64,000 bases of DNA from Candidatus Microgenomates bacterium (GTDB lineage: Bacteria > Patescibacteriota > Microgenomatia > UBA1406 > HO2-37-13b). A program made the position numbers and the translations under genes. The DNA lies in the NCBI GenBank assembly GCA_025449735.1, contig JANWIV010000001.1, positions 12,654-76,653 on the forward strand, in the 5' to 3' direction. The notes under the pieces are model-generated. The model saw only the letters and a program-made list of their open reading frames with translations, was not told the origin of the DNA and searched no databases. This document shows, one piece after another, positions 2,903 to 42,373 of this stretch. Numbering within the stretch: position 1 is the first letter of the stretch; the number at the start of each line of letters is the position of its first letter.

Positions 2903-4026
2903 AAATAGGAGTTGATTTATCAATGCTGGTATATGCGGGCAGTGGTGTTGCCACCTACACCCTTAACTTTGCTCAAGAGTTATTGAAGCGTCAGTCAAGC
3001 AATAATTATGTATTTTTTTATTCTTCTCTAAGAAAACCTAAAAACTTCACTTATTTGAATGTCTTAAGAGATTTCGGAGCGAATATTAAAGAGTTACCGC
3101 TACCAACGAGTGCCATCAGGTTCCTCTGGAATAAGCATTCGCTTCTGCCTGTTGAAGCTTTAATTGGCAAAGTCGATTTTTATCATTCCTCTGACTATTT
3201 GAGGCCACCACTATTGCCAGGGACTAAAGGAATAACTACAATTCATGACCTAACTTGGAAGCTTTTTCCACAGTATCATACCGAGGACGTTATTCGCCAT
3301 CATGAACGCAAGCTAGAAAGAACTATCAAGTATCAGGATATAATAATTGTTGATTCTCAAAATACCGAGCACGACCTGCTTAAACTTTATCCAATGATTG
3401 ATGAAAAAAAAGTTCATATCATATATCTTGGCATAGATGATCGCTTTCAGAAAGTTAGTGATACAAAAAAAATTGCCTCAGTACTTTCCAAATACTCAAT
3501 ACCAAATACTAAATACTTGCTCTACGTTGGCGCTATTGAGCCAAGGAAAAATCTACCAGTCGCCATTAATGTGTACAATGAATTATTGAAAGATAAAAAA
3601 TATTCCGACTATCATTTTGTCATTGCTGGTCGAGCCGGTTGGAAAAATGAATCAGTATATCAATTAGTCAAAGAATTGAACCTTGAAGATAGAATCCATT
3701 TTATCGGTTTTGTCGAAGATATTGACCTACCTACTTTATACTCTGGCGCCAGTGTCTTTATTTATTTGAGTTTATATGAGGGATTTGGTCTTCCACCACT
3801 GGAGGCGGCCGCTTGTGGCACACCTAGTCTAATATATAGAAACTCTTCCCTCGCTGAATCTTTTCCAAATGAATACCCTTTTGCTGAGAAAGGAAATGAA
3901 TTGAAGACTCTAATAAATTTAATTGAAAATCCAGAAAGAATCAAACTTTCTTTTGTCACAAAATATTCCTGGAAGAATTACGTAAATAATTTCCTTGCGG
4001 TTCTTAGTCAATTCCAATCTCTTTAA
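2899..4026 (+). CDS. Glycosyltransferase family 4 (GT-B fold)
   Basis: 375 aa. YEGFGLPPLEAAACGTPSLIYRNSSLAE block. ATGA overlap with the upstream GT4. Confidence 0.8.
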   Translation: MKIGVDLSMLVYAGSGVATYTLNFAQELLKRQSSNNYVFFYSSLRKPKNFTYLNVLRDFGANIKELPLPTSAIRFLWNKHSLLPVEALIGKVDFYHSSDYLRPPLLPGTKGITTIHDLTWKLFPQYHTEDVIRHHERKLERTIKYQDIIIVDSQNTEHDLLKLYPMIDEKKVHIIYLGIDDRFQKVSDTKKIASVLSKYSIPNTKYLLYVGAIEPRKNLPVAINVYNELLKDKKYSDYHFVIAGRAGWKNESVYQLVKELNLEDRIHFIGFVEDIDLPTLYSGASVFIYLSLYEGFGLPPLEAAACGTPSLIYRNSSLAESFPNEYPFAEKGNELKTLINLIENPERIKLSFVTKYSWKNYVNNFLAVLSQFQSL

Positions 4027-6217
4027 AGGCGGCACTCAATTTCCTATTGTCTAGTGAAAGACCTATTTCTACTGGGGAATATTGATTCTCAAACTCGAAT
4101 CGTAAATGATGGATAGTTTTTTTATTATATGAAGGTTGGATCTTGTGGCGATAAGTTAAAAACTCCTCCTCCAAATCATCTTCTCCTATTAAAATTTCAT
4201 CCATGTATATTTTGACGTGCTGAGGTTTTTCTAATGTCCGCGCCGTATAAGTAAGCGTAGTAGGTGACGATTTAGAAATAAGCCTAATGGTTGTCACTTT
4301 TGCATTTGCCCAACGACCCTCTGGTTCCGATACATCCCAACCCTCTAAGAGCAACATATCCTCGCAACAATTTGAATTAAAATTAATCCTAGAATAATCT
4401 GTGTTACTAGTTGTAAGGCAATTGTCGCTAATACAAACATTCCCTAAACGGTAAAAGCTGTTTTCCCAAACAATATTTTCTAAATGAATCCTAGCAGGAC
4501 TTGTTAGCATATCTTTGGATTGTAAAATCAAGCTAGTTTCTGTTGGTACATTAAAAAATATTTGATTCGAAGTATAAACTGTACGTAGCTTTGGATATAA
4601 AAAGTATTCCAACCAGATATCGCGCCAATAATTAATTTTGCCACTATAAAAACCATCTAGAAAAATTGGGCCGGATATATTTGTATTTTTGCTTAATTCT
4701 GAAATTGATATTAAATCACGACCAACGATTTTAGATTCCCTAATAAATCGTTTGTTCATTAATACACCGTTATAAATCACAAGTAATAACAGAGAAGTCA
4801 ACAGCAAGAACTTAAATTTTTTTAATTTGTTGAGTATTGAAACAAGGCCAATCGATAAAAAAATTATTAAAATTGGTAGTGAAAAAGTGATTGTCCGGTT
4901 ATAAACAAAGAAGTTTGGAGCAAATATTGTGCTCCAAAAAATAAAAATACCATAAATAATAACAATACCAAAAGTCATTACTTTCATTTTTGAGTTTTTA
5001 ATACCAAAACAAAAAATTATTAAGGTTAAAATGCTCAAAATAATTGATAAAAATAATGATAATGGGGGGTAGTTATGCATGCTATGAAACCCGAAAAATT
5101 CGAATGGGTAAGCAAAAGGAGTTTGTTCACGAAACAAAGCCCATCCAATTGGTTTACCAATATTACTCGCCTGCGCTATATCTAATTTAATCGCATGAAA
5201 AATAGCTGGAACGGAAATAATAAAAGCGGTTGATAATATTTTTAACAAGGATTCAATAAATCTAAAGTAACGTTGGTGCAAAATAAAAGTTACACAAATA
5301 TAAAAAACTAATGGAAAAATTATAAAAATACCACCTTCATGATATGATAAAAATACAGAAGCAATTATTATTCCTATTAATATTTCATTGACACTTTTAT
5401 AAGTTTTATCTGTTGATAATAATTTAAAATGAGCAATTACAAATACGTACAAATAGCTCTGCAGCAGCCAAAAAAAAACTTGACCTGTGAAATTATGGTA
5501 AAGCATATATAACAGATCAGCATTAAACGCTGTCATGAAAGCGATAATCAAAGCACCATAATGACTAGGCCGGTAGAATAAACTAAATAGGATGTACCCT
5601 AGCGGGATAGTCAGAGCAAAAATAATCACTGGGAAAATATAAGCAATTTGATAACCCTGAAGTGAGAGTAGTGATTCAAAAAAAGCAATGACAGCAGGAC
5701 TTCCCCAACGAAATCCGGAAACAATCATATTCATTATTCCAGTCGGATCATCGTTTACTTTTTCTGGTTTAATTAATAAATTATCAGCAATCGACCTCCC
5801 AACTAGATAATCTGGTACAGAAGCATATACCAAGGCATCAGTATTGCCAAGTGATACTGAAGTCAAAAAACGCGCATGTCTAAGCGGGGCAAGATTAATA
5901 AAAATACTAGTCAGAATAACAATAAACAGAAGACCATCGATTAAATAATTGATCTTCAATCTATTATTTTTGAAAAGATAGCTATAAATTGTTGTCAATG
6001 TGAGCAATACAAAAATCACTGGCGTCACATATTTTAAAGGAATACCAACCAGGCTAAGAATTGTTAAGAAAACACTTAAAAAAACAACAAGGGTCGCTGG
6101 CGAGAGCCAAAGGGAAAATTTGCTTAAATTTTTAGGTAAAATTAATGTTGTAATCCCGAATCCAAGGAAAAAAAGACTGAAGTAAAGGGCCCCAGTATAA
6201 AATATAAGTTCAACCAT
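4004..6217 (-). CDS. Polytopic membrane protein, paralog family A, with C-terminal GW..E..RW/DNR.L module (putative GT-C-like glycosyltransferase)
   Basis: 737 aa, mostly hydrophobic helices. Motifs LGNTDALVYASVPDYL and FRWGS are shared with 6220-8019 and 15184-17388. C-terminal soluble tail EGWDVSEPEGRW...DNRKLSAAF. Confidence 0.6.
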   Translation of the reverse strand: MVELIFYTGALYFSLFFLGFGITTLILPKNLSKFSLWLSPATLVVFLSVFLTILSLVGIPLKYVTPVIFVLLTLTTIYSYLFKNNRLKINYLIDGLLFIVILTSIFINLAPLRHARFLTSVSLGNTDALVYASVPDYLVGRSIADNLLIKPEKVNDDPTGIMNMIVSGFRWGSPAVIAFFESLLSLQGYQIAYIFPVIIFALTIPLGYILFSLFYRPSHYGALIIAFMTAFNADLLYMLYHNFTGQVFFWLLQSYLYVFVIAHFKLLSTDKTYKSVNEILIGIIIASVFLSYHEGGIFIIFPLVFYICVTFILHQRYFRFIESLLKILSTAFIISVPAIFHAIKLDIAQASNIGKPIGWALFREQTPFAYPFEFFGFHSMHNYPPLSLFLSIILSILTLIIFCFGIKNSKMKVMTFGIVIIYGIFIFWSTIFAPNFFVYNRTITFSLPILIIFLSIGLVSILNKLKKFKFLLLTSLLLLVIYNGVLMNKRFIRESKIVGRDLISISELSKNTNISGPIFLDGFYSGKINYWRDIWLEYFLYPKLRTVYTSNQIFFNVPTETSLILQSKDMLTSPARIHLENIVWENSFYRLGNVCISDNCLTTSNTDYSRINFNSNCCEDMLLLEGWDVSEPEGRWANAKVTTIRLISKSSPTTLTYTARTLEKPQHVKIYMDEILIGEDDLEEEFLTYRHKIQPSYNKKTIHHLRFEFENQYSPVEIGLSLDNRKLSAAFKEIGID

Positions 6218-6219
6218 TG

Positions 6220-8019
6220 TTACAATTCTGAACTTACTGGAATAGGTTCAATACGACCCAACTGATAAAATTCGTTTTCCCATATGATTTTTTTGTAGTT
6301 AATGACCTTATCGTCGTTTGAAGTCTTATTTTTGGCAGTGAGTACTGGTAATTTAACATTGTATTCTGAAATTAAAGTTACATAATTCGCCTTAGTTATA
6401 ATTTTTTTATGATTCAGAAAATAGTAAGTCCAGACTCGATTCCACAGATCATATTCAGTAAAATAAACGTCTGAGGTGACGAATGGTTTTTTAATTTTGG
6501 TATTTTTATCTAATTGTATAAGGGAAATAAGCGGCCGATCTACGGAGCGATGGTGACTGGCAAATTGAAACATTGTGCGATTAGCCGATCGCAGCGATAA
6601 AAAAATCATTATTCCAAAGACAAAAATTATAATCAATCTGTAATTGAATCTATCAAATAGGCGAGTCATGCCAATTGAGAAAACTGCAGAAAAAAGGAAA
6701 ACTGAATAAGTGATGGTCCGATGGTAAACGAAAAAATTTGGTTTAATAAATTTAAACAAAAATAAAAATCCGATGAAAAAAATCGCATAGCTTAGAATTA
6801 GCAATTTATTTTTTATCCTTAAAAATCCAAGGAAAGCGATGCCTAGGATTACAACGGTAAGTATGACATCAAATAAAATCGGAAGATCGCGATAATAATT
6901 CAGATTGTAAAATCCTAGTGCCTCGGCAGGAAAAGCATGGCGAATCGCTTCCCAACCAATATGCTCCTCAATTGTAGTAACTTTGACCATCCGAATAAAC
7001 CATCTTGCCATTGTGCCAAAAGTAAATGGATTGAAAATAATAGAAAGAATTATAATTTTTACAATTTTGAATAAATTTTCGACATTTTTAGTAATTAATT
7101 GAGTAGCGCCATAAATAAGCATCGGAAAGACTGCCAAAAAATACCCCTCGGGATAAATTGTTGTAATCGAGGATAAAATTAGGCCTAGTGTCAAATCATA
7201 ATGGTTTAAATTATGGGTTTTTAATTTGTCAGATAAATATTGACACAGCAGAACCAAAGTAAGCGCTATTAAACCTCCAAAAATTATCTGCCCAAAAAAA
7301 GCATTGTATAGAATGTAAAGCAGAGTTGAATTAATCCCATATGTCAGAAAGGTAAGAACGGCAATCTTCAGTTTATCCTTTTTATAAATTAGTACCGCCA
7401 ATACATATACCAATGGATAGGTAAGGGCAAAAAAAATACTTATCAATGTCGTAAATATTTCATATGACCTGGTGTTCAGCAGGACCGCAAAATAGCTAAA
7501 GATAATTCCACTACCCCATCGGAAGCTGTAGGTGATCAAATCACTGGCGCTAGCCACGCTAGGAACAAATGGGTCTTGAAAATCACCCCCAAAAACTGAA
7601 TTTTTAATTAAATAGTCCCCAGTCGTCGCATAAGCAACTGGATCAAGATTGCCAAGCGACATTACCGTCGGATAACCAACCCTAAAAATCATTGGCCATA
7701 TATTATAGAGCAGAATAAACGAAGTCATAATTAATACAGACAGTGACACTTTTGAAAATTTCAGCTGTGCTTTATCTCTTAATAAGCAATGTAGGAAAAG
7801 TAGGCTAGAAATTAGAAATATCGGTCTACTAGCCTGTTCCATCGTAAACCCCGCCATGCTCATATAGACGCTGGCCACAACAATTCCTATGGTTCCTAAC
7901 CACGGAGAAATGAAGAAGGTATAAGATTTGAGAGATTTGGGTAATATAATTGAAGATAGACCTAGACCAGATATATAAAGCAATAGGACAAGTTTAATTG
8001 TTAAAATAAGTGTTTCCAT
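6220..8019 (-). CDS. Polytopic membrane protein, paralog family A, tail-less member
   Basis: 599 aa. LGNLDPVAYATTGDYL and FRWGS motifs. It ends right after WENEFYQLG, where its paralogs continue into the C-terminal module. Confidence 0.6.
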   Translation of the reverse strand: METLILTIKLVLLLYISGLGLSSIILPKSLKSYTFFISPWLGTIGIVVASVYMSMAGFTMEQASRPIFLISSLLFLHCLLRDKAQLKFSKVSLSVLIMTSFILLYNIWPMIFRVGYPTVMSLGNLDPVAYATTGDYLIKNSVFGGDFQDPFVPSVASASDLITYSFRWGSGIIFSYFAVLLNTRSYEIFTTLISIFFALTYPLVYVLAVLIYKKDKLKIAVLTFLTYGINSTLLYILYNAFFGQIIFGGLIALTLVLLCQYLSDKLKTHNLNHYDLTLGLILSSITTIYPEGYFLAVFPMLIYGATQLITKNVENLFKIVKIIILSIIFNPFTFGTMARWFIRMVKVTTIEEHIGWEAIRHAFPAEALGFYNLNYYRDLPILFDVILTVVILGIAFLGFLRIKNKLLILSYAIFFIGFLFLFKFIKPNFFVYHRTITYSVFLFSAVFSIGMTRLFDRFNYRLIIIFVFGIMIFLSLRSANRTMFQFASHHRSVDRPLISLIQLDKNTKIKKPFVTSDVYFTEYDLWNRVWTYYFLNHKKIITKANYVTLISEYNVKLPVLTAKNKTSNDDKVINYKKIIWENEFYQLGRIEPIPVSSEL

Positions 8020-8024
8020 TTTTT

Positions 8025-10211
8025 TTACTTTTTAATACTCAGCTTTGAAAAAAATACGGCTAGATTTCGATTATCTTGATTATCTTTATATATGTTCGAC
8101 GGCCTAACATTTTTTTCAAAAATAAATGTAATTCTATTTACGCCTACTTTTAAATTTTGCTGTAAGCTAAAATGATATTTCTTTCTCTCTTTATCAAAAT
8201 TTAAATTATATGTGGGGAGACCATTGATATTGATCGTGGCTTGTTGATTATCAACGATGGTATTGGCTTCAAAATCGAGATTAATTCCAGCCTTGCGATT
8301 GGTCTTAAAAAAAATCGTCGCTACCTTATCAAGAGTCCATCGACCTTCGGGTTCGTAGGGTGCCCATCCGTAACCAAAATAAAACTGTCGCTGACTGCTC
8401 GATAATTCATCTAGGTAAAATTCCTGTCGTTTTATCATCCTATTGTACAGACTATAACCGTTATCATTTATTGACAACTCATATCCAAGCGAAATCAGTA
8501 TGTCGTTTATAGCTTCCGAATATGGCTCTTTTTGCTTTAGCACGATATTTTCCAATCCAAAAAATTCGATTGAATCAAGCATCTTATCTCTATCTAAAGT
8601 CAGATTCGATTGACTACTAGGATCAATCAGCTGAGCTAGATAACCAATAAAAGCGTCATTGCGATAATAGTCAAATACGGCTGGGTTCAATCTACCCGCA
8701 TAGACACTAAACTTTGGTTTTTTGTATATTAATTGTGTTCGTAGTGATGAAACAGCATTAAAATCACCAATGTATTGCAACCCGTCTCTTATGACAAAAG
8801 GGATCTCCATAACTGGTCCCGTCGGAGAACTTTCTAAACGATCGTATATTTTTTGTGGAATTGGTTGGAGCACTTGTCCAAAAGATGCCGTATAAGATTG
8901 GTCGATTAAAAAAATGAAAATTGCCAGAATACAAAGAGTGAAATATGTTAGTCTATCCTTAACTTTCTTATCTGCGAAGTCCTGGGCTAATAAGGCAGTC
9001 ACTATCGTCATAAGAAAGATCGCAGGGACAATAAACCGGGCCGGACTCCTTGCTAGCTGAACGTATGGAATACTATTTAGAATCTTAAAGGGCAATACTA
9101 TAAAAGTTTCATGACCGAAAATATGTAACTTTGGTCCCAGTGTCAGAATCCAAAAGCAGAGGATGACAAATAACATTGGATTGATTTTTCTTTTTATTTT
9201 AAGACTGATCTTTTTATTGAAGAAAATAACGTATAGTACCCCTAACAAGATTATTATTCCAGGATAAACTAAATTTTCAAAAGCCGGTCTTAAAGCCAAA
9301 ATTGATGACATATACTCAAGAAATTTGCCAAATACTAATCCCGTAGTTGCTGGAGTGAAAATTCCAATTAAGTCTGATGAAAATTGAATACTGTCTTTGG
9401 AAAAATGAAAGTCGATACCCTGACTTAACAAGAGGCTTCGGTAAACCTTAATAATCCATGGGTAAAGCAATATTAAGCCAAGAAATAGAATAATGAGTAA
9501 GTATTGGTATCGGCTCTTGATGAAACTTGTCAATACATTTTTGTTTGAGATTAAATAATAGCTTAGAAAAAAAGACACCATCAGTGCGAGCATCACTGTG
9601 AAATACAGATTCGTAAGAACTAATACTGCCACACTAATCGTTAGTCCAAAACTATTGATTACAATGAACTTTTTAGTTTTACTCCTGAGAACACTAATAA
9701 AAAAGAATGCTATCGCTGGAAATAAATACAAAGCTGTGTAGGTAGGATGTCCTAACCTGGCGACAACGAAAGGAGAGTAGCCATATACCAAACTCAAGAC
9801 ATAAGAGATGCCGCGCCTTATCTCAAATTGTCTCAACAATAGATACATAAAGGCACAACTGGCTACGATACCAAACATTACTATTATAGTAAAGGCATCA
9901 TGGACTGAAAAGAAAGGGCGCAGAAAAAGGAAATAAACTCCATTAATGGGTGCCACATCCTCAAGGGCAAAATTCCAACCAAATGGAAAAAGCAAGGGAG
10001 CTTCGTTAAACGGGTTACGAAGTGAAAGAATATTAAGTCTTACCGTTTCGGCCACATACTCGTACACTGGCCACTCTCCAAAAACCACTAATGTATTTGG
10101 TACTTTGAAAATTGAATAGTGCCAAATATTGAAATTAAAAATGTAGTTTAATAGTGTGTAACTGAGAAGTATTAAGAAAGGGATAGAAACTTTTTTTTTC
10201 AAAAAATTCAT
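8025..10211 (-). CDS. Polytopic membrane protein, paralog family B, with C-terminal GW..E..RW/DNR.L module (putative GT-C-like glycosyltransferase)
   Basis: 728 aa. NPFNEAPLLFPFGWNFALEDVAPINGVYFLFLRPF near the N-terminus, MEIPFVIRDGLQYIGD late in the protein, and tail GYGWAPYEPEGRW...DNRNLAVFF. Confidence 0.6.
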   Translation of the reverse strand: MNFLKKKVSIPFLILLSYTLLNYIFNFNIWHYSIFKVPNTLVVFGEWPVYEYVAETVRLNILSLRNPFNEAPLLFPFGWNFALEDVAPINGVYFLFLRPFFSVHDAFTIIVMFGIVASCAFMYLLLRQFEIRRGISYVLSLVYGYSPFVVARLGHPTYTALYLFPAIAFFFISVLRSKTKKFIVINSFGLTISVAVLVLTNLYFTVMLALMVSFFLSYYLISNKNVLTSFIKSRYQYLLIILFLGLILLYPWIIKVYRSLLLSQGIDFHFSKDSIQFSSDLIGIFTPATTGLVFGKFLEYMSSILALRPAFENLVYPGIIILLGVLYVIFFNKKISLKIKRKINPMLFVILCFWILTLGPKLHIFGHETFIVLPFKILNSIPYVQLARSPARFIVPAIFLMTIVTALLAQDFADKKVKDRLTYFTLCILAIFIFLIDQSYTASFGQVLQPIPQKIYDRLESSPTGPVMEIPFVIRDGLQYIGDFNAVSSLRTQLIYKKPKFSVYAGRLNPAVFDYYRNDAFIGYLAQLIDPSSQSNLTLDRDKMLDSIEFFGLENIVLKQKEPYSEAINDILISLGYELSINDNGYSLYNRMIKRQEFYLDELSSSQRQFYFGYGWAPYEPEGRWTLDKVATIFFKTNRKAGINLDFEANTIVDNQQATININGLPTYNLNFDKERKKYHFSLQQNLKVGVNRITFIFEKNVRPSNIYKDNQDNRNLAVFFSKLSIKK

Positions 10212-10214
10212 ATG

Positions 10215-10931
10215 TCAATTATAGCGCTTCATTTCAAAAAAAAGACGCAAATCACCAACAATTTTTTCACGGATTAAATCAAGGATATTATAATTCGAAG
10301 TTCCCCAAATTCTTGGATAATGAGATACTGGCACCTCAGCGAATGTAGCTCCGGATATTTGAAGTTTTTTTACGAGCTCCGGCAAAATTGATGAATCAGT
10401 ACTATCTAATTTTATTTTTGCAAGCCTCGACTTTCTAATTAGCCTGAAATCGCAATCGACATCGCGGACTGGAAGCTGAAGAATTGTTTTGCTAAATTTA
10501 GCATACAGATTACCTAAGAGAACTCGAATAAAAGCATCTCTTCTGGATTTTTTATATCCATTAACGACATCGACATTAGTCTTCTGCTGTTTTTCTACTA
10601 GGTGCTCCAAATCAGTTTCTAAATGGTACTGAGCGTCGCCATCAGTATAAAAAATCCATTTCTTATTGGCATTTGCAAAACCGTGTTTTATGACCGCATA
10701 ACCTTCCTGATTGCGAGATCTATCAACTATCTTTAGATTTGGATAAATAGACTTCATCTCTTTGATTCTTTGAGTAGTTTTATCCTGGGACCTGCCGCCG
10801 ATAATAGCAATTACCTGCAGATTATCTGTCATTCGTCGTCCGATGCTATATGCCAAGTGAATTTGTCGAGATACAGTTCCTTCATCGTTTAAAAAGGGAA
10901 AAAAAATAGATAAGCTTTCAAGTTTTTTCAT
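10215..10931 (-). CDS. Glycosyltransferase family 2, DPM1/polyprenyl-phosphate sugar synthase-like, soluble form
   Basis: 238 aa. LSIFFPFLNDEG start and YTDGDAQY DxD-type motif. No C-terminal TM helices. Confidence 0.65.
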   Translation of the reverse strand: MKKLESLSIFFPFLNDEGTVSRQIHLAYSIGRRMTDNLQVIAIIGGRSQDKTTQRIKEMKSIYPNLKIVDRSRNQEGYAVIKHGFANANKKWIFYTDGDAQYHLETDLEHLVEKQQKTNVDVVNGYKKSRRDAFIRVLLGNLYAKFSKTILQLPVRDVDCDFRLIRKSRLAKIKLDSTDSSILPELVKKLQISGATFAEVPVSHYPRIWGTSNYNILDLIREKIVGDLRLFFEMKRYN

Positions 10932-12039: not shown

Positions 12040-12044
12040 ACTAT

Positions 12045-12593
12045 TTAATCTCGTTTTGGTTTCCAAAAATCGCGACCCAAAGAATCCCAAGGAATTCTTT
12101 TTTCGTCGGCTTTTTTTAAATTAAATTGTTGATTGACAAAGACATAAAGCTCAACTGGTTTGCTCGTAAAAATTGCCGAACCATGTGCTACCCCTTTTGG
12201 AATATAAAGCATATGAGCACTGCCGCCACCAAGGACCACTCTCATCGTCTTGCCGACTGAAGGCGACTTCGTTCTTACATCCCACAAACCCGCCAATAGG
12301 TGGTCAAGCGGACTAACATACCAAATTTCATCTTGGCGATAATGAAGATGCCAAGCTTTAATAGAGCCGGGGATAAGTGTTGTTCGATTAATTTGGGCCA
12401 GTTTAAAACCCTTTATATTTTCAAGATTGCCGTTTTTTATTCGTAGTATTTCGGAGAAATCACCCTCTTCTGCAGGAATGTTTTTCAAATCGATTATTCT
12501 TACTCCTTCAATATTTTCTTGTTCACTATAATCAGCCGGGTAAATTAATTTAGAAGCATCAAGAACAATATCTTTGGCAGTAAGGTTTTTCAT
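12045..12593 (-). CDS. RmlC-like cupin (NDP-4-keto-6-deoxyhexose 3,5-epimerase family)
   Basis: 182 aa. AWHLHYRQDEIWYV, LYIPKGVAHG and RIPWDS correspond to the RmlC core motifs. Confidence 0.65.
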   Translation of the reverse strand: MKNLTAKDIVLDASKLIYPADYSEQENIEGVRIIDLKNIPAEEGDFSEILRIKNGNLENIKGFKLAQINRTTLIPGSIKAWHLHYRQDEIWYVSPLDHLLAGLWDVRTKSPSVGKTMRVVLGGGSAHMLYIPKGVAHGSAIFTSKPVELYVFVNQQFNLKKADEKRIPWDSLGRDFWKPKRD

Positions 12594-12627
12594 CAGAGCT
12601 CCATTGTATCAAATTACGCGCCATATG

Positions 12628-14415: not shown

Positions 14416-14426
14416 AGACAATAAGC

Positions 14427-14432
14427 TATAAT
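14427..14432 (+). promoter_or_regulatory. -10 box TATAAT, 9 nt upstream of ATG 14442
   Basis: gctataattgcctccatATG. The divergent gap to the family B gene start (14415) is only 26 bp. Confidence 0.4.
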
Positions 14433-14441
14433 TGCCTCCAT

Positions 14442-15176
14442 ATGAAGCAAAATGAATATTACACTATGTTTGCCGTTGAAGATAGTCATTTTTGGTATCG
14501 AGGAATGAAACAAATCACCAGCACTCTTATCAAAAGCAATTTTAAAAAAAATCAGAAATATAAAATCCTTGATGCTGGCTGTGGTACTGGCGCTGGCATG
14601 ATAGCACTTTCAAAATTTGGCGAAGTTGCAGGTGTTGACTATTCGCCTCTCGCGATTGAACTTTGCAAAAAAAGGGGACTCAAAAAAGTTTCTGTTGCCA
14701 GTATCGAAAAATTGCCTTTCAAAAACTCCTCATTCGATCTAGTCATTTCCTCTGATGTGTTGGGCCAAATGGAAGTAAATCAGGATATGACGGCAATTAA
14801 TGAATTCTATCGAGTGCTAAAACCTGAGGGAATTTTGATTTTGCGAACCGCTGCTTTCAATTGGCTATACAGCTATCATGACCGTGCGGTCCATACTAAA
14901 CATCGCTATACAGATAATGAACTCAAAGCGCTTCTTAAGAAAGGCAAATTTAAAATAATAAAAACTACCTATGCGAATATGTTTCTCTTTCCAATATCCT
15001 TTATTCTAAGAATAGCCAGTAACTTTTTGAAGATTGAACCAAAAAACTCTGATGTCAAACCCTTGAATCCCATTATCAATCAGCTTTTTTATTTTCCTTT
15101 TTTTATTGAAAACCAACTTATTAAAAGGGGCTCTCTTCCTTTTGGCTTATCGATCATCATGGTAGGTAAAAAATAA
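14442..15176 (+). CDS. Class I SAM-dependent methyltransferase
   Basis: 244 aa. Motif I ILDAGCGTGAG. Confidence 0.8.
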   Translation: MKQNEYYTMFAVEDSHFWYRGMKQITSTLIKSNFKKNQKYKILDAGCGTGAGMIALSKFGEVAGVDYSPLAIELCKKRGLKKVSVASIEKLPFKNSSFDLVISSDVLGQMEVNQDMTAINEFYRVLKPEGILILRTAAFNWLYSYHDRAVHTKHRYTDNELKALLKKGKFKIIKTTYANMFLFPISFILRIASNFLKIEPKNSDVKPLNPIINQLFYFPFFIENQLIKRGSLPFGLSIIMVGKK

Positions 15177-15183
15177 AGGTAAA

Positions 15184-17388
15184 TTATTCCAGTCTCATCT
15201 TTCTCACATTTGCTGATAAAGCTCGATTGTCAAAACCTTGCCCATACTCAGAGGGCTTGTATGATGAGGAAAATTCAAAGGTAATGCTGTGGATGCCGGG
15301 TAGTACCTTAATAGGAATCCGGAATTCCTGCCAATTTTCTGTTAATTTAATTGTCGCCATCTTTTGATTATCAACCTTCACTGTCATTGCTTGAGGGGTT
15401 TGGAAAGTTATCGCTTCGATTATAAGACTTCTTGTGATATGTTTATTTATGAGCCGAACGCTAGCCAGCTTATCAACGATCCAACGGTGATCACCCTCAT
15501 TCACACCCCAACCATCAACTAATAGAGAATCGACATATTGGCTCTCAGCAAAGTCGATTTGGGATAAATCCTCAACGTTATTAAGAAGACACTTGTCACT
15601 GATACATAGAGAACCTAATTTATAGTAATTATTCTCCCAAACTACCTTATTAAAAAGTAGGTTGCTAGGAATAATATACTTTACTACTTTTGAAATCAAA
15701 ACAAGATCATCATCCTTAATTTTATTATTACTCTGTGCATATTCGAGACTAGTGATGAAATTGACCTTATCGCCTAAGAAGTACTCCGCCCAAAGCTCTT
15801 TCCAAATTGGCAAATCGGGGTTAAATATTTGTTCTGAATAAATAATTGAGTCTTCAGTGAGTTTTGGCATGTCAGACAGAATAGTCATCCAGCGATCAAC
15901 TGCTAAATTTTCACGCCAGTAGCGCTTCATCAGCAATCCATTATTGATGAAACTTATCCAAACAATTACCACCAAAATATAAGGAATTAAATGTTTTTTT
16001 GACTGTAATAAACTTACTAAGCCAATCATAAGTAAGGTTATGAGAATTGGTGCCCCATAAGAAACCGCTCGATCATAAAACCAGAAATTGGGCCGCACCA
16101 AGCTTAGGAGCAGGATGAAAAAACCATAGGTAGCAACAAAACTACTCATAAGAATATTATTGTTAGACTTTTTGGCACCATACAATATCATTCCAATTAC
16201 TCCCAGGCTTAAAATTATGGAAATAATTATTGGTAGTGATGGCAAACTATGGATGCTATATAAGCCTGTCATCTCAAATGGACTGATAAAGGAGCTACCT
16301 GATTGACGAAACGCCTGCCAACCTACCTCCGCGTTAAAGTCACCGGTTCGATAAAATATCGCAAAACGTATTGAATGAATAATCGCTGGCCAAGCCAGTA
16401 AGAAAGTTAAAAAAAGAGATTTAGAATAGGCTACGGTCCACACTAAACTTTTTTGCTTTGAGAAAATATGAAATAAGGCAATAATCCCTATTGGGATTAA
16501 TATAAATACTGCCGCTTCATGATATGAAAAAAATATCACTGAAAGGACTACTGAAATTAAAAAGTCATGACGATTAAATATAAGGCTTACTTTTTCCTGC
16601 TTTTTAAGGATCTTCTCATAACTGATAAGCAGAATAGTAACCAGGAGTGACAACCCGAGGAAAATAATTTGTCCGATAAAGTTGTGATAAAGATAATAGA
16701 TAATATTAACATTAGTTCCTACTAAAATTGCTGTTACTATTGCGACGAAGTTATTCTTTTCTCGATTTAATAAATTAAACAGAATATAAATCAGCGGCAT
16801 CGCCGCTGCAAAAAGCACCGTCTGAATTATTGTCAGGAGTTGATAACCAGCAAGACCTAACAACTGTTGAAAAAATGCCATCAAGACTGATGGGCCAACA
16901 CGCCACCCAAAAGAAAATAAAGTATGGACTTCAAAGTTAGTTTGCTCCTCAAAGGCTTGGCGCACCGAATGAGTCAAAAGATAATCAGGGACGGCGGCAA
17001 ATGCCTTAGCATCATTTCCTCCTAGTGAAAGTGTGGTTAAGAATCGTTGCTGTAATAACATTGGCAGCAGATTAAGCAAAACTAATACTAAAGCAAGGGC
17101 GAAAATAATCTTGGTAGACAAATCGACTTTCGGCAATCCAAACTTTACAATTACGTAGATTGAGCTCAAAATCATGGTTGTTGTCAAGATGATTACAATC
17201 AACTTCGTACTTAAACCGAGACTACCTAAAATAACCATCGAAAAAATGACAGCAATAACTGTTACCCAGGGCGAGATCGGTAATGAATACGGTTGTAATT
17301 TTTTCGGTAATAAGAGTCGACTAATACCGTAACCTAAGAAATAAAATACGAAAAATAGAATCACTGGATAAATGATTGCAGATTCCAT
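15184..17388 (-). CDS. Polytopic membrane protein, paralog family A, with C-terminal module
   Basis: 734 aa. LGGNDAKAFAAVPDYL and FGWRVG motifs. Tail DGWGVNEGDHRW...DNRALSANV. Confidence 0.6.
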   Translation of the reverse strand: MESAIIYPVILFFVFYFLGYGISRLLLPKKLQPYSLPISPWVTVIAVIFSMVILGSLGLSTKLIVIILTTTMILSSIYVIVKFGLPKVDLSTKIIFALALVLVLLNLLPMLLQQRFLTTLSLGGNDAKAFAAVPDYLLTHSVRQAFEEQTNFEVHTLFSFGWRVGPSVLMAFFQQLLGLAGYQLLTIIQTVLFAAAMPLIYILFNLLNREKNNFVAIVTAILVGTNVNIIYYLYHNFIGQIIFLGLSLLVTILLISYEKILKKQEKVSLIFNRHDFLISVVLSVIFFSYHEAAVFILIPIGIIALFHIFSKQKSLVWTVAYSKSLFLTFLLAWPAIIHSIRFAIFYRTGDFNAEVGWQAFRQSGSSFISPFEMTGLYSIHSLPSLPIIISIILSLGVIGMILYGAKKSNNNILMSSFVATYGFFILLLSLVRPNFWFYDRAVSYGAPILITLLMIGLVSLLQSKKHLIPYILVVIVWISFINNGLLMKRYWRENLAVDRWMTILSDMPKLTEDSIIYSEQIFNPDLPIWKELWAEYFLGDKVNFITSLEYAQSNNKIKDDDLVLISKVVKYIIPSNLLFNKVVWENNYYKLGSLCISDKCLLNNVEDLSQIDFAESQYVDSLLVDGWGVNEGDHRWIVDKLASVRLINKHITRSLIIEAITFQTPQAMTVKVDNQKMATIKLTENWQEFRIPIKVLPGIHSITFEFSSSYKPSEYGQGFDNRALSANVRKMRLE

Positions 17389-17390
17389 GA

Positions 17391-19631
17391 TTATTTTGAA
17401 TCCAACAACTCGATAAATTCAAATTCAGCGGCAGTCAACCCATCGTCATTAACCGAATCAAAAAAGAAATGAATCTCATTGATTCCTGGATTTAGTTTGT
17501 TGTTAGTATCAATTTTATAGCTACTGTTTTTAGGCGTTAATAATAATTGACCGATATTTTTTTTATTGACATCTATTGAGACGGATTTTGGCCTTTCAAC
17601 ATGCGTTATAAAACGTAGAGTCATATCTCGCTTTTTTGTTAACTTCATCATTACTGAGGCCTTTTTTTCGGCCAATCGAAATTGCCCCTCTTTTTCCTGC
17701 CATCCCATGCCTAAATAGGTCACTAAATTAGGCGTATCAAAATCAACTTTCAAAAACTCCCGATTTTTAGGAGGCCTCATCAGCAAGGAAAATCGCCCGT
17801 CAGTCATCATTTCCTTAAAACCAAGGTCTATTAGCGTTTTGCTAACCGTGTCAGAATAAATTTCTTTGTTATCAACAATGACGTATTTAATATCAAGGAA
17901 ATCAATAACCAATAAGGCGCTCTGTTTGTCCAGAGTTGACCATTTTGATAGCTCCTTTTGATCGATAATTGGATTTTTAGAAACATTTGAGTCCATAGCT
18001 CGACCAAGATAGCCAAGAAACGGATTGCGATAATAATAGGCCCGTTTATAATCGGCGATTCTCCCGGTGTAACCACCGATTATTGGTTTACCATGATAAG
18101 ATTCGCCGACAATGCCGGATACGGCATCTTCATCACCAAAATAGGTAAAGCCATCGCGTACTGTGAAAGGAATTTCCATCACCGTTGAAAAAGAAGGGTC
18201 TTTGGCAATAGTTTCGTAGATTTTGTATGGATAGTCGACATCTGGAGGTGTTAAATTACTTACATAGCGTTGATCAAAAATAAATACTAAAAGCAGTGCA
18301 CCAAAAAACAAGCTACGAAAAAAGCTCGATCGCTTTCTGATTAAATATTCAAAAACATATGCAACGGTAATATATGCAAAGAAAATAAATGCGACGACCA
18401 GTCGACCTGGCACACGAATATTTTCGAAAAGTGGTATAAAATGAAGCAAAACATAAGGCATTGGAATAACTAATTTAATAGTGTCATCTAAATAGTAACC
18501 GCCTCTTCCAAATACATGCAGAAATGGTCCCAATGTCAGCACAAAAAAAACAATCGTAACAAAAAAGAATGGCTGAGATGGTTTCATTTTTACCCTGTGG
18601 CCTTTTTTTAAATGAAGGATTGAGTAAAGTACAAGCCCAATGAGAATAATTAATCCCGGATAAACAAAGTTTTCAAAGGCACCTTCGGCAAAATGAGCAT
18701 AAGTTTTAACTATTTTTTCATACAAATCCGGATAATAATTATTTATGTAGTGATTGTAGCCACTAGGTACAAGAAAGGAAAATAAGTCAGCCGAAAAATC
18801 AATCGCCCCACCCCAACCAGGTAAGCGCGGAATGCTCTCAAACTTTATCCCCTCATAAACTCCTTTGATCCAGGGAATAAGAAGAAGAATTATAAAAAGG
18901 ACCGTCCTTAATAAGTCGAGCCACCTTTCCTTTAATTTAATAAACAATTGCTTTTTTGCAATCGTTAAGTAATAAATAAGGAAGGCTCCAATCGATATTA
19001 CAATCATGATGAAATAGTAAAAATTAGTCCAAAGAGATAAAGCAAAAAAAACTGCCGCTCCAAGTCCACTCACAATTCTTGTTGATGCCTCCTTTGAGAT
19101 GAGTAGTGAATAGCCACACAAATAAAACCAAGGGAAAACATAGATCATGAAATAGTTCAGATGCCCTTGCCTGACTGCCAAAAAAGTCATATAGCCAAAG
19201 GCGAGTGCTATTATAAAAGACACCATTTTACTTATCTGAAATTTCCTCAGTAACAAATACATACCAATATTTGCCATCAGCTGACTGAGCGCCATGATAA
19301 TTGAGAAGCTAGTATAGGATGAGAAGAAAGGTCTCAAAGGAAGATAAAACAATCCATTACCAGCATCAGTTAAACCAATTTGCAGCCGAAAAGGATAGAG
19401 CATACCAGTATAAAAACCAAAGGGATTTTGTCCAGCAACGATTGCCTCATAAAATTTATTTGTTAACCATTCATAAACTCTAACCTCCCCCCAAATAGAC
19501 CCGTTTGTTGAGCTGTCAAAAAAAATCTGACTCCAAAAAAGGCTGCCATTAAACCAGAAGCTAAAAAAGAGAAAGCCAAACAATACAAACCAAATTGATC
19601 TTTTATCTATGTATTCGCTAATTTTTATCAT
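17391..19631 (-). CDS. Polytopic membrane protein, paralog family B, with C-terminal module
   Basis: 746 aa. NPFGFYTGMLYPFRLQIGLTDAGNGLFYLPLRPF and VMEIPFTVRDGFTYFGD. Tail GMGWQEKEGQFRL... Confidence 0.6.
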   Translation of the reverse strand: MIKISEYIDKRSIWFVLFGFLFFSFWFNGSLFWSQIFFDSSTNGSIWGEVRVYEWLTNKFYEAIVAGQNPFGFYTGMLYPFRLQIGLTDAGNGLFYLPLRPFFSSYTSFSIIMALSQLMANIGMYLLLRKFQISKMVSFIIALAFGYMTFLAVRQGHLNYFMIYVFPWFYLCGYSLLISKEASTRIVSGLGAAVFFALSLWTNFYYFIMIVISIGAFLIYYLTIAKKQLFIKLKERWLDLLRTVLFIILLLIPWIKGVYEGIKFESIPRLPGWGGAIDFSADLFSFLVPSGYNHYINNYYPDLYEKIVKTYAHFAEGAFENFVYPGLIILIGLVLYSILHLKKGHRVKMKPSQPFFFVTIVFFVLTLGPFLHVFGRGGYYLDDTIKLVIPMPYVLLHFIPLFENIRVPGRLVVAFIFFAYITVAYVFEYLIRKRSSFFRSLFFGALLLVFIFDQRYVSNLTPPDVDYPYKIYETIAKDPSFSTVMEIPFTVRDGFTYFGDEDAVSGIVGESYHGKPIIGGYTGRIADYKRAYYYRNPFLGYLGRAMDSNVSKNPIIDQKELSKWSTLDKQSALLVIDFLDIKYVIVDNKEIYSDTVSKTLIDLGFKEMMTDGRFSLLMRPPKNREFLKVDFDTPNLVTYLGMGWQEKEGQFRLAEKKASVMMKLTKKRDMTLRFITHVERPKSVSIDVNKKNIGQLLLTPKNSSYKIDTNNKLNPGINEIHFFFDSVNDDGLTAAEFEFIELLDSK

Positions 19632-19633
19632 TA

Positions 19634-21913
19634 TTATTCAAGGGTCAAACTATAGAATTGCATTGCCAAGTCTCTATTATCAAGATTATTTGTCAAAACA
19701 ATACTCGGTTTAAATGATTTTGAGTAGACAAAATCAATTCTATTTAAGCCGCTATTTAGATTACCCTTAGTCTTGATTGTATATTGCTTCCGTTTGGTTT
19801 CTACATCGATTCCATCAAGGAATACGTCATTTAGATAAATTGATATTTCTTGCGGTAAGTGAAACGAGGCGGCTTCAAAATTAATATCTTGACTACTCGC
19901 TTTATTAGTTTTAATAAATACGGTTGACGATTTGCCCAAACCCCATCTAAATCCTCTCTCTGGCGCACTAAAATTTCTCCCGGCGAAAAGCGCGCTTTCT
20001 TTGTCGCCAAACGAGATGTTTGTAAATTCAAGGTCTTTACTTCGACGAAAATAGAGACTATGAGAGCCATCCTCCATAACTGACTTAAAGCCTAACTCAA
20101 TCAATTTCTCTTGAATAATCTGAGAGTATAACTCATCATTTTTGACAATGACATAATTTATATCTAACAATTCAATCTCCTCTAAAAGCATTTCGTTTGA
20201 TGCTAAAAATTGACTAACACTCGGCGTTTTTGCTGGTTCTTTATACAAATGAAAATTTCCTTTATCAATTATTTTCCCAATGTGACCAATAAAGGGAAGG
20301 GCGCGGTAATAATCAAAAATCGCGCTGTCAATTCGCGATAAATAGCCTCCAATAATTGGGTGCTCATGGATCATCGCACCACGCATAATCTGCTGAGCGT
20401 GCACATCTCCCATATACTGCAAACCATCTCGCAACACAAATGGCACCTCCAGCACCGTGCCACCAGTTTGGTGATTATTGATATATTGATAAGTCTCAAC
20501 TGGTAATTCCGCTGGAGCACGATTAGGGACAAAATATGTCTGATCAACAATGAAAATGAGTAAAACAAGTATAAAAAATTTCAGCAATTTCTCTTTTTTC
20601 AAATGGTCGCTAATAAATTGGAAAATAAAAGCAGCAAATATTGAACCAAAAAATACCGTGCCGGTTATGAATCGAGAAGGGGCGGAGATGATATCAAAAA
20701 AGGGTATAAAATGAAGCGCTAAGAAAGGCAAAGGAAAGTAGATTGGAATTTCTTCGGGCAAAATTATATACCACTTGTTAAAAACCTTAAGTAGTGGCCC
20801 TAAAGAAAGAATGGCAAAGATGATTCCTGATACGGCAAAAACCTTCATGTATTGCTTGGTAATGCTTGGTATTTTTTTGCGAGCAAAGAAATAAATTACA
20901 AAGGAAACAAGAATTAAAATTCCAGGATAGCCAAATCGACCCCAATTGCCTTCAAAAAAAACTGACAATTTCGCGAGTAAAGAATTTTTGTTTGAGATAG
21001 TGTCAAAGATATAATTATAAAGCGGATTAAATTCACTGGGGAATAATAAATTCATCAAGTCGGAAGAGAGAGTCAACGGTCGAACAATTCCTTTGAGCTC
21101 TGGCAATCTATTTCTCATCAGATATTCATTGGCCGACAAAATCCATGGTAATAAAAATACCAAAAATGACAATATAGAGATCGGTACTAATCCCAAATTT
21201 GCGACCATAGTGCCAATGGCTCTTTTCTTAAAGTAAACAAGAGAGCAAACAAAAAGCAGTAAACTACCGATTACTGCCGTAATGAAGTAGTAAGGATTAG
21301 CATAGTAAAGACCCGCCCAGACAGCGCCCCAAAATATTGAGAATAGCACTCGTTGACGATTTGAATTATTGTTTAGAATCGAATGTCCAATCAGCATCAG
21401 CAGCGGAAAAAAATAAGTGGCTGTATAGGTCAAATGCCCTAAAACTCGATAAGAAAGATACGGCGAAAAGCCATATATTAGAGCGCCAATCATTGATGCA
21501 AAGTTTGATAATTTAAATCGTCTCAATAGCAAATACATAACTAAATTTCCTAATGCGATGTTAAAAAGTACAATTAATTGAGTCGCTTGGTGAATATCAA
21601 GTAGGGGACGAAGTACAAAAAGAAACGGTACATTGATAAAAGAAGTATCTTGAAAAGCAAAATTGGTTTCGAACGGATACAAAACTTTTGTAGTCGTAGC
21701 AAACGGGTTATTGAAATGAGACAAACTTTTATATTCAGTTTCCGTCAGAAACTCGGTCACCACTCCGTCATCAATTGGAATTGTCATCGAGTCATATAAT
21801 ATGACGTTTCGCAGAATTTGAAAATTGAAAACTATTGTAAGTAAAGAAACTAGAAGCGTAAAAGCGATTTCATATCTGAATATTAGTGCTTTTTCTTTTA
21901 TCGCTTTCAACAT
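19634..21913 (-). CDS. Polytopic membrane protein, paralog family B, with C-terminal module
   Basis: NPFATTTKVLYPFETNFAFQDTSFINVPFLFVLRPL and VLEVPFVLRDGLQYMGD. Tail APERGFRW...DNRDLAMQF. The track start 21958 is TTG, so I prefer ATG 21913 (MLKAIKEK). Confidence 0.6.
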   Translation of the reverse strand: MLKAIKEKALIFRYEIAFTLLVSLLTIVFNFQILRNVILYDSMTIPIDDGVVTEFLTETEYKSLSHFNNPFATTTKVLYPFETNFAFQDTSFINVPFLFVLRPLLDIHQATQLIVLFNIALGNLVMYLLLRRFKLSNFASMIGALIYGFSPYLSYRVLGHLTYTATYFFPLLMLIGHSILNNNSNRQRVLFSIFWGAVWAGLYYANPYYFITAVIGSLLLFVCSLVYFKKRAIGTMVANLGLVPISILSFLVFLLPWILSANEYLMRNRLPELKGIVRPLTLSSDLMNLLFPSEFNPLYNYIFDTISNKNSLLAKLSVFFEGNWGRFGYPGILILVSFVIYFFARKKIPSITKQYMKVFAVSGIIFAILSLGPLLKVFNKWYIILPEEIPIYFPLPFLALHFIPFFDIISAPSRFITGTVFFGSIFAAFIFQFISDHLKKEKLLKFFILVLLIFIVDQTYFVPNRAPAELPVETYQYINNHQTGGTVLEVPFVLRDGLQYMGDVHAQQIMRGAMIHEHPIIGGYLSRIDSAIFDYYRALPFIGHIGKIIDKGNFHLYKEPAKTPSVSQFLASNEMLLEEIELLDINYVIVKNDELYSQIIQEKLIELGFKSVMEDGSHSLYFRRSKDLEFTNISFGDKESALFAGRNFSAPERGFRWGLGKSSTVFIKTNKASSQDINFEAASFHLPQEISIYLNDVFLDGIDVETKRKQYTIKTKGNLNSGLNRIDFVYSKSFKPSIVLTNNLDNRDLAMQFYSLTLE

Positions 21914-21921
21914 AGAATGTC

Positions 21922-21935
21922 CTATTATATAATAG
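21922..21935. promoter_or_regulatory. Perfect 14-bp palindrome CTATTATATAATAG giving TATAAT on both strands (back-to-back divergent -10 boxes)
   Basis: It lies in the 31-bp gap between ATG 21913 (minus strand) and ATG 21945 (plus strand). Distances from the -10 boxes to the ATGs are 10 and 11 nt. Confidence 0.5.
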
Positions 21936-21944
21936 CCTTTGAAT

Positions 21945-29649: not shown

Positions 29650-29700
29650 ATAGGCGTTTTGTGATAATATACAGGTATTCTACAGTATATAAATGTGAAA

Positions 29701-30501: not shown

Positions 30502-30513
30502 TAATTATTAGTA

Positions 30514-30657: not shown

Positions 30658-30665
30658 ATTTAACT

Positions 30666-37271: not shown

Positions 37272-37278
37272 GATTAAA

Positions 37279-42369: not shown

Positions 42370-42373
42370 ATAA

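Follow-up and report, generated by a model that had tools for sequence, protein, structure and literature searches.

A tandem array of seven predicted GT-C-type glycosyltransferases from two protein families in a Candidatus Microgenomates bacterium

Here we describe a tandem array of seven genes for large membrane proteins which, judging from predicted structures, are very probably enzymes of the glycosyltransferase C (GT-C) fold. The array lies in a 64,000-nucleotide (nt) window of the genome of Candidatus Microgenomates bacterium (assembly GCA_025449735.1, contig JANWIV010000001.1, positions 12,654-76,653 of the forward strand); by the window we mean this whole stretch of DNA, and coordinates are positions within it unless a related locus is named. 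The seven open reading frames (ORFs), all on the minus strand within 4004-21958, encode proteins of 597-774 amino acids (aa) when upstream TTG starts are included, and fall into two families, which we call A (genes A1-A3) and B (genes B1-B4). A first-pass annotation of the same DNA had already reported all seven ORFs and the intergenic gaps of only 2-5 nt, and both are as it described them. The genes of the array are as follows.

4004-6217, minus strand: A1, a family A GT-C-like protein of 737 aa, with a domain of 14 transmembrane (TM) helices, a soluble domain and a C-terminal beta-sandwich that resembles a carbohydrate-binding module (CBM).
6220-8019, minus strand: A2, a short family A paralog of 599 aa, without the C-terminal beta-sandwich.
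8025-10211, minus strand: B1, a family B GT-C-like protein of 728 aa, with 11 TM helices, an alpha/beta domain and a CBM-like beta-sandwich; the family B member that was modelled.
12628-14415 (14421 with an upstream TTG start), minus strand: B2, a short family B paralog of 595 (597) aa, without the CBM-like domain.
15184-17388, minus strand: A3, a family A GT-C-like protein of 734 aa; the family A member that was modelled.
17391-19631, minus strand: B3, a family B GT-C-like protein of 746 aa.
19634-21913 (21958 with an upstream TTG start), minus strand: B4, a family B GT-C-like protein of 759 (774) aa, for which the ATG at 21913 fits the profile alignment better than the TTG does.

An all-against-all blastp comparison of the seven proteins bears out the proposed division into three A and four B paralogs. 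Identities range from 25 to 32% within family A (E 1e-44 to 1e-111; A1 and A3 share 32%) and from 29 to 39% within family B (E 1e-57 to 1e-119), while the membrane domains of A and B give no significant match to each other. A1 scores 773 bits against the family A profile. The sequence motifs first used to tell the two families apart are present, except that B3 deviates in the '(F/Y)(G/E)(W/T)NFA' part but keeps its Asp. In the direction of transcription the genes run B4-B3-A3, then, beyond a divergently oriented methyltransferase gene, B2-cupin-DegT-GT2-B1-A2-A1 (GT2 standing for glycosyltransferase family 2), which matches the first reading of B-B-A followed by B-(cupin, aminotransferase DegT, GT2)-B-A-A. 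The plus-strand methyltransferase gene (14442-15176) probably divides the array into two transcription units; a promoter and terminator scan of 3500-22500 gave counts not above those in shuffled sequence, and is therefore uninformative on operon boundaries.

The proteins had been described as almost entirely hydrophobic, which is wrong: membrane helices occupy roughly the initial 440-490 residues, and the last 110-295 or so residues of each protein are soluble. An N-terminal membrane domain, with 11 TM helices in family B and 14 in family A, is followed by a soluble alpha/beta domain, and it is in this soluble region past the last TM helix, outside the membrane part, that the '(M/L)E(I/V)PF..RDG' motif of family B lies. 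Across both families, A1, A3, B1, B3 and B4 end in a common domain of about 130 aa with the motifs 'GW-x3-E-x3-RW' and 'DNR-x-L' (blastp E 1e-4 to 1e-10), which is missing from the short paralogs A2 and B2. It also forms the confident portion of the profile-profile alignment of A with B (hhalign probability 99.6%, E 2e-24). In Foldseek searches the C-terminal sandwich resembles CBM4, 6, 35 and 36 and the carbohydrate-binding domain of BcsB (E about 1e-3, about 100-230 alignment columns), with CBM4/6/35/36 and BcsB matched by B1 and CBM6/35 and BcsB by A3; the length of these 100-230-column matches and the type of target suggest that they belong to the C-terminal sandwich of the models. Just before the CBM-like domain, residues 595 and 600 of A1 and A3 form a Cys-x4-Cys pair (CISDxC; window positions about 4430-4435 in A1 and 15590-15605 in A3, minus strand) that is invariant in the long members of family A. 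The pair may be a disulfide, which would suit an extracytoplasmic location.

None of the seven proteins reaches a curated threshold in Pfam or NCBIfam, so the statement that neither family falls into a named Pfam family was right. Scanned singly against Pfam, 54 members of family B and 67 of family A gave only sub-threshold matches to uncharacterised families, namely to DUF7657 (9 of the 54 B members), to DUF6541 (2 of the 54 and 1 of the 67 A members) and, on the C-terminal domain, to DUF7024 (4 of the 54). P0192, a distant relative of family A, exceeds the DUF6541 cutoff, and some family B homologs carry precomputed DUF6311 tags. The profiles of known glycosyltransferases were equally silent: PMT, PMT_2 and ArnT have no match at E<=1 among the seven proteins (Pfam and NCBIfam) and none at E<=0.01 among the 121 family members, the Pfam profiles STT3 and Arabinose_trans match neither the seven nor the 121, and the sole match to YfhO (PF09586), at E 0.66, comes from a single family B homolog. 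Sequence-profile searches of the PDB with both families returned no glycosyltransferase even at E<=10, ArnT included. The Pfam, NCBIfam and PDB profile searches likewise matched no characterised family with another function.

A word-indexed search found 63 relatives of family B, the few named ones being hypothetical proteins of Roizmanbacteria, Woesebacteria or the 'Patescibacteria group'. The same kind of search with A3 returned only the query, and an exhaustive profile search for family A gave 530 cluster representatives at E<=1e-3 and 94 at E<=1e-30, of which the ten that were looked up are unnamed metagenomic sequences. Apparently, and so far, both families occur only in Patescibacteria. 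We found no literature on DUF6311, DUF6541 or GT-C enzymes in Patescibacteria, and no relevant paper, judged by title or abstract, on glycosyltransferases of Roizmanbacteria.

The GT-C assignment comes from predicted structures. AlphaFold2 models built from the family alignments (B1: pLDDT 91.4, pTM 0.91; A3: pLDDT 96.0, pTM 0.93) were compared with the PDB by Foldseek. B1 matched AftD (6wby, E 4e-7), PglB, STT3 of the yeast and human oligosaccharyltransferases, AglB, ArnT and AftA; A3 matched ArnT (5ezm/5f15, E 5e-5, TM-score 0.49 on the target), AftA, the C-mannosyltransferase DPY19 and AglB. The full-length matches are nearly all GT-C enzymes, from six different families, with a Foldseek probability of 1.00 and E values of 4e-7 to about 5e-3, and they agree with the GT-C fold that had been proposed from the sequence. 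TM-scores are 0.36-0.49 and sequence identities 8-12%; when the proteins compared come from different GT-C families and carry extra domains, TM-scores this modest are to be expected. No transporter, Wzy, WaaL or SEDS structure, and no transporter or polymerase fold that lacks the GT-C core, appears among the matches listed, and we therefore rejected a transporter or Wzy/WaaL fold.

The two models also have the detailed features of the GT-C core. The description of AftD names a single arrangement of eleven TM helices, two juxtamembrane helices in the segment from TM1 to TM2, a TM3 split into two short helices, and a TM7 that extends beyond the membrane and is followed by a long loop to TM8 (10.1101/2019.12.22.885152). 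All of these are present in the DSSP strings of both predicted models. In B1, TM1 spans 2-34, the loop helices 47-62 and 90-97, the split TM3 133-144/147-151 with P147, and TM7 224-262, followed by a loop at 263-318. In A3 the core begins with helix 90-114, after three extra N-terminal helices, the loop helices lie within 126-177, TM3 spans 213-224/227-234 and TM7 314-350, and the loop 351-386; the membrane part of the hhalign alignment, of low confidence, accordingly pairs TM1 of B with TM4 of A.

The first-pass annotation had pointed to conserved acidic residues in the first loop, and these are indeed conserved over the 54 family B and 67 family A members. D126 of A3, the first residue of the first loop helix, is invariant in 67/67 family A sequences; position 46 of B1, directly before helix 47-62, is D or E in all 54 family B sequences, of which 94% conserve E51 and 98% conserve D85. 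The hhalign alignment pairs D126, Y130 and D135 of A with E46, Y50 and E55 of B. In the GT136 enzyme ORF12, residues D31, E34 and Y35, just before the first periplasmic helix, are required for activity (PMC11127046), and in the models D126 and E46 occupy the position that the catalytic acid has in GT-C enzymes already characterised. The key residues are kept in all seven paralogs. A1 keeps the equivalents of D126, R163, Y289/E291 and W357/R361, and only B4 deviates (E312G, R388S), while keeping an acid at 46 as well as E51, D85, D437 and D476. No paralog therefore looks inactive.

Topology was derived from the helices of the AlphaFold2 models and the positive-inside rule, and in the resulting scheme all short loops rich in Lys and Arg share one side. 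Alternate loops differ in their fraction of Lys and Arg in every one of the 121 sequences; the values are 0.30 against 0.07 for family B and 0.26 against 0.06 for family A. On this predicted topology, the columns that are at least 85% conserved fall mainly outside: in family B 49 are outside and 18 within TM helices, with 0 inside, and in family A the corresponding counts are 27, 14 and 1. The conserved polar residues of family B at the outer boundary are R98, R152, H155, N201, Y203, D280, E312, R388, R392, D437, E469, R475, D476 and R507, and the conserved residues of family A there are R163, Q240, Y289, E291, W357, R361 and E372. In the models, conserved polar residues thus appear to gather at the outer edge of the membrane, alongside conserved soluble-domain residues, which is the arrangement one would expect of a GT-C active site. 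Secondary structure and charge bias together would put the loop acids and the soluble domains on the outer face, and the positive-inside rule predicts no cytoplasmic placement of the acids. Candidate catalytic residues are D126 in family A and E46, E51, D85, D437 and D476 in family B.

The array, whose degree of expansion at one locus had been called unusual, is not peculiar to this genome. A search based on an 18-sequence alignment of closer members yielded 13 related loci from metagenome-assembled genomes of Roizmanbacteria, Gottesmanbacteria, the 'Patescibacteria group' and one 'Gammaproteobacteria' bin, which we number L001 and so on. Tandem family A and family B genes occur in 13/13 of them, mostly as arrays of 4-7 in varying order (the short locus L010 has only two), and the arrays usually hold one short A and one short B gene, with A2 orthologs of about 600 aa in most loci. 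The paralogs of the window are 36-52% identical to their orthologs elsewhere and 25-39% to each other. B3, for instance, has orthologs of 43-49% identity in eight loci, and the B2 ortholog of L002 is 52% identical and stands at the same place, before cupin-DegT-GT2. Since orthologs are closer than home paralogs, the duplications are old and the copies specialised; the idea of a 'combinatorial' or recently expanded array was rejected on the same ground, every paralog having a closer ortholog elsewhere than any paralog at home. The two families themselves are old and distantly related.

Two observations on these loci stand apart. L012 (CAYNFC010000004.1), labelled 'uncultured Gammaproteobacteria', has the same A/B array with the same GT4 (glycosyltransferase family 4) and ATP-binding cassette (ABC) neighbours, and its bin is probably mislabelled or chimeric. 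Four loci contain an ORF of 319-333 aa (L001 4597-5595; L002 3758-4741; L004 6800-7756; L005 4181-5164) whose match to family A is confined to the N-terminal membrane half. It could be either a shortened paralog or a subunit in its own right, and it has no counterpart in the window.

The genes inside and directly beside the array are mostly those of glycan synthesis and export.

1-686, minus strand: ABC-transporter ATPase, Wzt/TagH-like, cut by the start of the window; Walker A 'GRNGAGKST' in the translation.
709-1524, minus strand: cytoplasmic GT2 of 271 aa, identified by Pfam and kept beside the ABC genes in related loci.
1562-2902 and 2899-4026, plus strand: two GT4 glycosyltransferases, convergent with A1 (Pfam Glycos_transf_1, E 1e-28 each).
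10215-10931, minus strand: small GT2 of 238 aa with no TM helix (Pfam Glycos_transf_2; weak matches to ArnC and PgfS).
10918-12090, minus strand: sugar aminotransferase of the DegT/DnrJ/EryC1 type (Pfam PF01041, E 1e-81).
12045-12593, minus strand: RmlC-like cupin of the nucleoside-diphosphate (NDP)-4-keto-6-deoxy-sugar epimerase/isomerase family (Pfam dTDP_sugar_isom, E 8e-11; PDB matches to 3ejk and RmlC).
14442-15176, plus strand: S-adenosylmethionine-dependent methyltransferase, divergent (Pfam Methyltransf_11, E 3e-21).

A 446-aa GT4 and the ABC ATPase adjoin the array in 10/10 loci with enough flank. In L001 and L002 the ATPase gene is followed by an ABC2_membrane gene, and this permease partner implies that the glycan-export module runs past the edge of the window. 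B2 heads the cupin-DegT-GT2 cassette. With the methyltransferase, which is kept at the same place in each, the cassette recurs in three loci: in L002 it follows the B2 ortholog, and in L006 and L007 it lies close to the downstream end of the array. The nearest NCBIfam models for DegT, below their cutoffs, are NDP-4-amino-4,6-dideoxyhexose transaminases, and the GT2 at 10215 is a candidate synthase of a lipid-linked amino sugar.

Further genes that could supply lipid-linked sugars lie at some distance.

32508-33212, plus strand: second small GT2, 234 aa, no TM helix, beside an epimerase/dehydratase and a DegT/RfbH-like enzyme; 25% identical to the GT2 at 10215.
36333-37304, minus strand: polyprenyl-phosphate GT2 of the GtrB/ArnC/PgfS type with two C-terminal TM helices (full-length match to sll0501 GtrB, 5ekp, E 5e-68; ArnC E 5e-40; PgfS 232 bits).
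39357-40295, plus strand: second GT2 of the GtrB/ArnC/PgfS type with two C-terminal TM helices (5eke E 2e-65; ArnC E 3e-35).
55603-55950, minus strand: ArnE/ArnF-like four-TM protein of 115 aa (NCBIfam ArnF 40.9 and ArnE 34.5 bits, EamA 26.5 bits, all below cutoffs).

The claim of four polyprenyl-phosphate-type GT2s in the window stands for those at 36333 and 39357, which are clear, full-length members, but not for those at 10215 and 32508, which are TM-less and only weakly like ArnC and PgfS. The GT2 at 36333 is a possible donor synthase, and the protein at 55603 a candidate flippase for a lipid-linked sugar, with a weak tie to the array. A three-component route of synthase, flippase and transferase had also been proposed, and GtrB-type synthases and an ArnE/F-like gene do occur in the window, but 14-34 kb off the array. 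In the other genomes, none of the GtrB-like GT2s, the second small GT2 or the ArnE/F-like gene lies within 10 kb of an array, so the tie of the GtrB-type GT2s and the ArnE/F-like gene to the array comes from their co-location in this window and is suggestive only.

Between the array and these genes lies one more large membrane protein (26793-28772, minus strand), of 659 aa, with nine or more TM helices and a soluble C-terminus. As a member of family A or B it was rejected, with an hhalign probability of 3-22%, and it is counted here as a third family. It has no Pfam or PDB match; its three named homologs are all from Roizmanbacteria or Patescibacteria, and the others are unnamed metagenomic sequences. 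A homolog lies within the A/B array of L009 (12135-14051), and the protein may therefore be an eighth enzyme of the system.

Given seven GT-C enzymes, the function that we favour, and to which we give an even chance of being right, is the extracytoplasmic decoration or extension of an ABC-exported glycan with sugars taken from polyprenyl phosphate; its topology, catalysis, donors, acceptor and order of steps we infer as follows. Cytoplasmic GT4 and GT2 enzymes would assemble a glycan on a lipid carrier, and the adjacent Wzm/Wzt-type ABC transporter would export the lipid-carried glycan. Outside the membrane, each of the seven GT-C enzymes would attach one particular sugar or form one particular linkage, either branching the chain or lengthening it, using polyprenyl-phosphate sugars made by GT2 synthases, while the CBM-like domains would hold the acceptor glycan. 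EmbC, AftD and the GT136 enzyme ORF12 hold their glycan acceptor with such modules (10.1101/2019.12.22.885152; PMC11127046). B2, the cupin, DegT and the small GT2, with the methyltransferase, would form a module in the style of ArnB/ArnC/ArnT, in which the cassette would make an amino-deoxy-sugar and load it onto a lipid, and B2 would transfer it.

Several points weigh against this picture. The seven proteins and their families have no sequence-level match to any characterised GT-C enzyme in Pfam, NCBIfam or PDB profiles, which leaves the GT-C assignment to predicted structures and to the Foldseek TM-scores of 0.36-0.49. The placing of the acids in the active-site groove, on the same side as the soluble domains, comes from secondary structure and charge bias in the models, and the topology requires residues 180-222 of B1 and 273-309 of A3 to fold as tight hairpins that turn on the outer side at N201/Y203 and Y289/E291, whereas DSSP shows these segments as nearly or fully continuous helices. 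Neither a priming enzyme nor a second ABC component is visible in the window, and to these must be added the distance from the array of the clear polyprenyl-phosphate GT2s and the ArnE/F-like gene.

The alternative that survives best, doubtful but a real possibility, is that the array is a full extracytoplasmic assembly line, which polymerises a complex heteropolysaccharide or lipoglycan from lipid-linked monosaccharides, in the way that mycobacterial arabinan and mannan are made by the Emb, Aft and Mpt enzymes. The locus has seven different GT-C enzymes of ancient divergence, with orthologs across genomes, and no described side-chain decoration needs so many; the best fold matches include AftD and AftA, and the CBM-like domains are as in EmbC and AftD. 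Elongation and branching are, however, indistinguishable from sequence, and the lipid-sugar synthases (two clear, two possible) are fewer than seven, though one donor may serve several GT-Cs. The assembly line overlaps with the decoration or extension that we favour, and differs from it only in the share of the glycan that is built outside.

It is unlikely that the seven are GT-C enzymes with protein acceptors such as S-layer proteins, pilins or adhesins, in the manner of PglB/AglB, the PMT O-mannosyltransferases or the streptococcal Pgf system. This possibility is raised by the top structural matches of B1, which are mostly the oligosaccharyltransferases PglB, STT3 and AglB, and by the two GtrB-like GT2s, both of which match best to PgfS, the GT2 of a protein-glycosylation system. 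Foldseek rank within the GT-C families says nothing, however, on the type of acceptor. There is no STT3 or PMT Pfam match, and none of the seven proteins contains a WWD or W[WY]D[YFW]G motif, so membership in the oligosaccharyltransferases (STT3/PglB/AglB, GT66), with their WWDYG motif, was rejected. The C-terminal domain is CBM-like, as in the glycan-acceptor enzymes AftD, EmbC and GT136, and the conserved neighbours form a GT4/GT2/ABC-exporter polysaccharide module and include no candidate target proteins.

That the proteins are not glycosyltransferases at all, and are instead transporters, polymerases or ligases of the Wzy/WaaL/SEDS type, or structural proteins, whose GT-C likeness is an artefact of large helical bundles, is very improbable, for the low TM-scores and identities and the lack of a profile tie to any glycosyltransferase family, which would fit it, are set against full-length matches that are nearly all GT-C, the absence of those other folds among the matches listed, the specific GT-C hallmarks, and the predicted gathering of conserved polar residues with soluble-domain residues at the outer boundary.

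GT-C enzymes and multi-component transmembrane glycosylation are already known (PMC8035078, PMC11127046); what is new here is two sequence families without a database family, in conserved arrays of up to seven paralogs in very small genomes. Families A and B are candidates for two new GT-C families in a classification of the CAZy type. By its published description, GT136 (ORF12 of the Citrobacter youngae O antigen) has the same architecture, with 11 TM helices, a small and helical periplasmic part behind the first of them, and a beta-rich CBM at the C-terminus (PMC11127046), and its D31, E34 and Y35 before the first periplasmic helix recall E46-x3-Y50-E51 in family B and D126-x3-Y130 in family A. 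It acts after polymerisation, on surface glycan, outside the cytoplasmic membrane, and its CBM is dispensable (PMC11127046), which fits the naturally CBM-less A2 and B2. In contrast to the seven genes from two families here, GT136 is the one GT-C at its locus. In its three-component system the donor comes from a polyprenyl-phosphoribose synthase with a MATE flippase, whereas here we find candidate GT2 synthases and a small ArnE/F-like protein, and its host is a proteobacterium, not a Patescibacterium.

The mycobacterial embCAB genes also form a tandem paralog array. As is proposed for the array, EmbA/B/C and AftA-D (6wby, 8if8) bring several GT-C enzymes to one envelope glycan, with lipid-phosphate sugar donors. 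In AftD, a GT-C super-domain of 11 TM helices is likewise combined with a soluble domain of mixed alpha/beta structure and with CBMs, but the protein is far larger than those of the array, having three CBMs, additional TM helices and a bound acyl carrier protein (10.1101/2019.12.22.885152). The mycobacterial enzymes have no sequence similarity with the array (no Arabinose_trans match), and the array, in contrast to them, adjoins an ABC-exporter pathway.

With the Arn pathway the array shares ArnT (5ezm/5f15) as the best fold match of family A, and DegT (in the place of ArnB), the weakly ArnC-like GT2 and the GT-C B2 follow the same logic, with an ArnE/F-like protein in the window. ArnT differs in having 13 TM helices, no CBM and lipid A as acceptor, and the small GT2 here lacks the TM helices of ArnC. 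Because the cassette runs through an RmlC-like cupin, its sugar is probably a 6-deoxy-amino-hexose and not 4-amino-4-deoxy-L-arabinose. The Gram-positive systems CsbB/GtcA/YfhO, GtlA/GtlB and GacI/GacL combine a GT2 of the GtrB type with a small flippase and a GT-C enzyme, and so decorate wall polymers of monoderms that are exported by ABC transporters or anchored in the membrane (PMC8035078). The two GtrB-like GT2s of the window are full-length relatives, but these systems use one GT-C per modification, and there is no described counterpart of a seven-gene array among them.

The envelopes of Candidate Phyla Radiation bacteria (Patescibacteria) are chemically almost unknown, and their surfaces are thought to mediate an attached, host-dependent life. 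Very small genomes that keep about 16 kb for seven large glycosyltransferases, predicted to face outward, point to a complex, conserved surface glycan that would be made largely outside the membrane. As a tentative conclusion, which we hold to be possible and somewhat doubtful, Microgenomates-type Patescibacteria might have a lineage-specific line of at least seven specialised GT-C enzymes, from two or perhaps three families not known elsewhere, that builds a complex envelope heteropolysaccharide or lipoglycan outside the membrane, as an independently evolved analogue of mycobacterial arabinogalactan and lipoarabinomannan synthesis. If true, such an assembly line in ultra-small, probably symbiotic bacteria could mediate host attachment. 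The B2-cupin-DegT-GT2 genes are a defined cassette, suited to a heterologous host.

Three soluble proteins of 312-360 aa with no family match are encoded beside the array on the plus strand (21939-23821 and 25031-26113). The first of them (21939-22886), the one compared with the related loci, has a homolog that adjoins the array of L004; the second has a very weak likeness (E 0.17) to the C-terminal domain of GT28. The G+C fraction shows a step in composition, from 0.32-0.37 over 1-30000, which covers the array and its neighbours (one 2-kb bin reaches 0.41), to 0.36-0.46 over 30000-64000. Among the sugar-nucleotide genes, three stretches (29695-31571, plus strand; 37279-39026, minus strand; 41416-45201, plus strand) hold unexpected enzymes: two split transketolase pairs, a DmpF/DmpG-like acetaldehyde dehydrogenase and aldolase, and a thiamine diphosphate-dependent enzyme like acetolactate synthase, which may all serve branched-chain or otherwise unusual sugar chemistry. 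An IS200-like Y1 transposase (53687-54349, minus strand) lies between the sugar genes and the ArnE/F-like gene.

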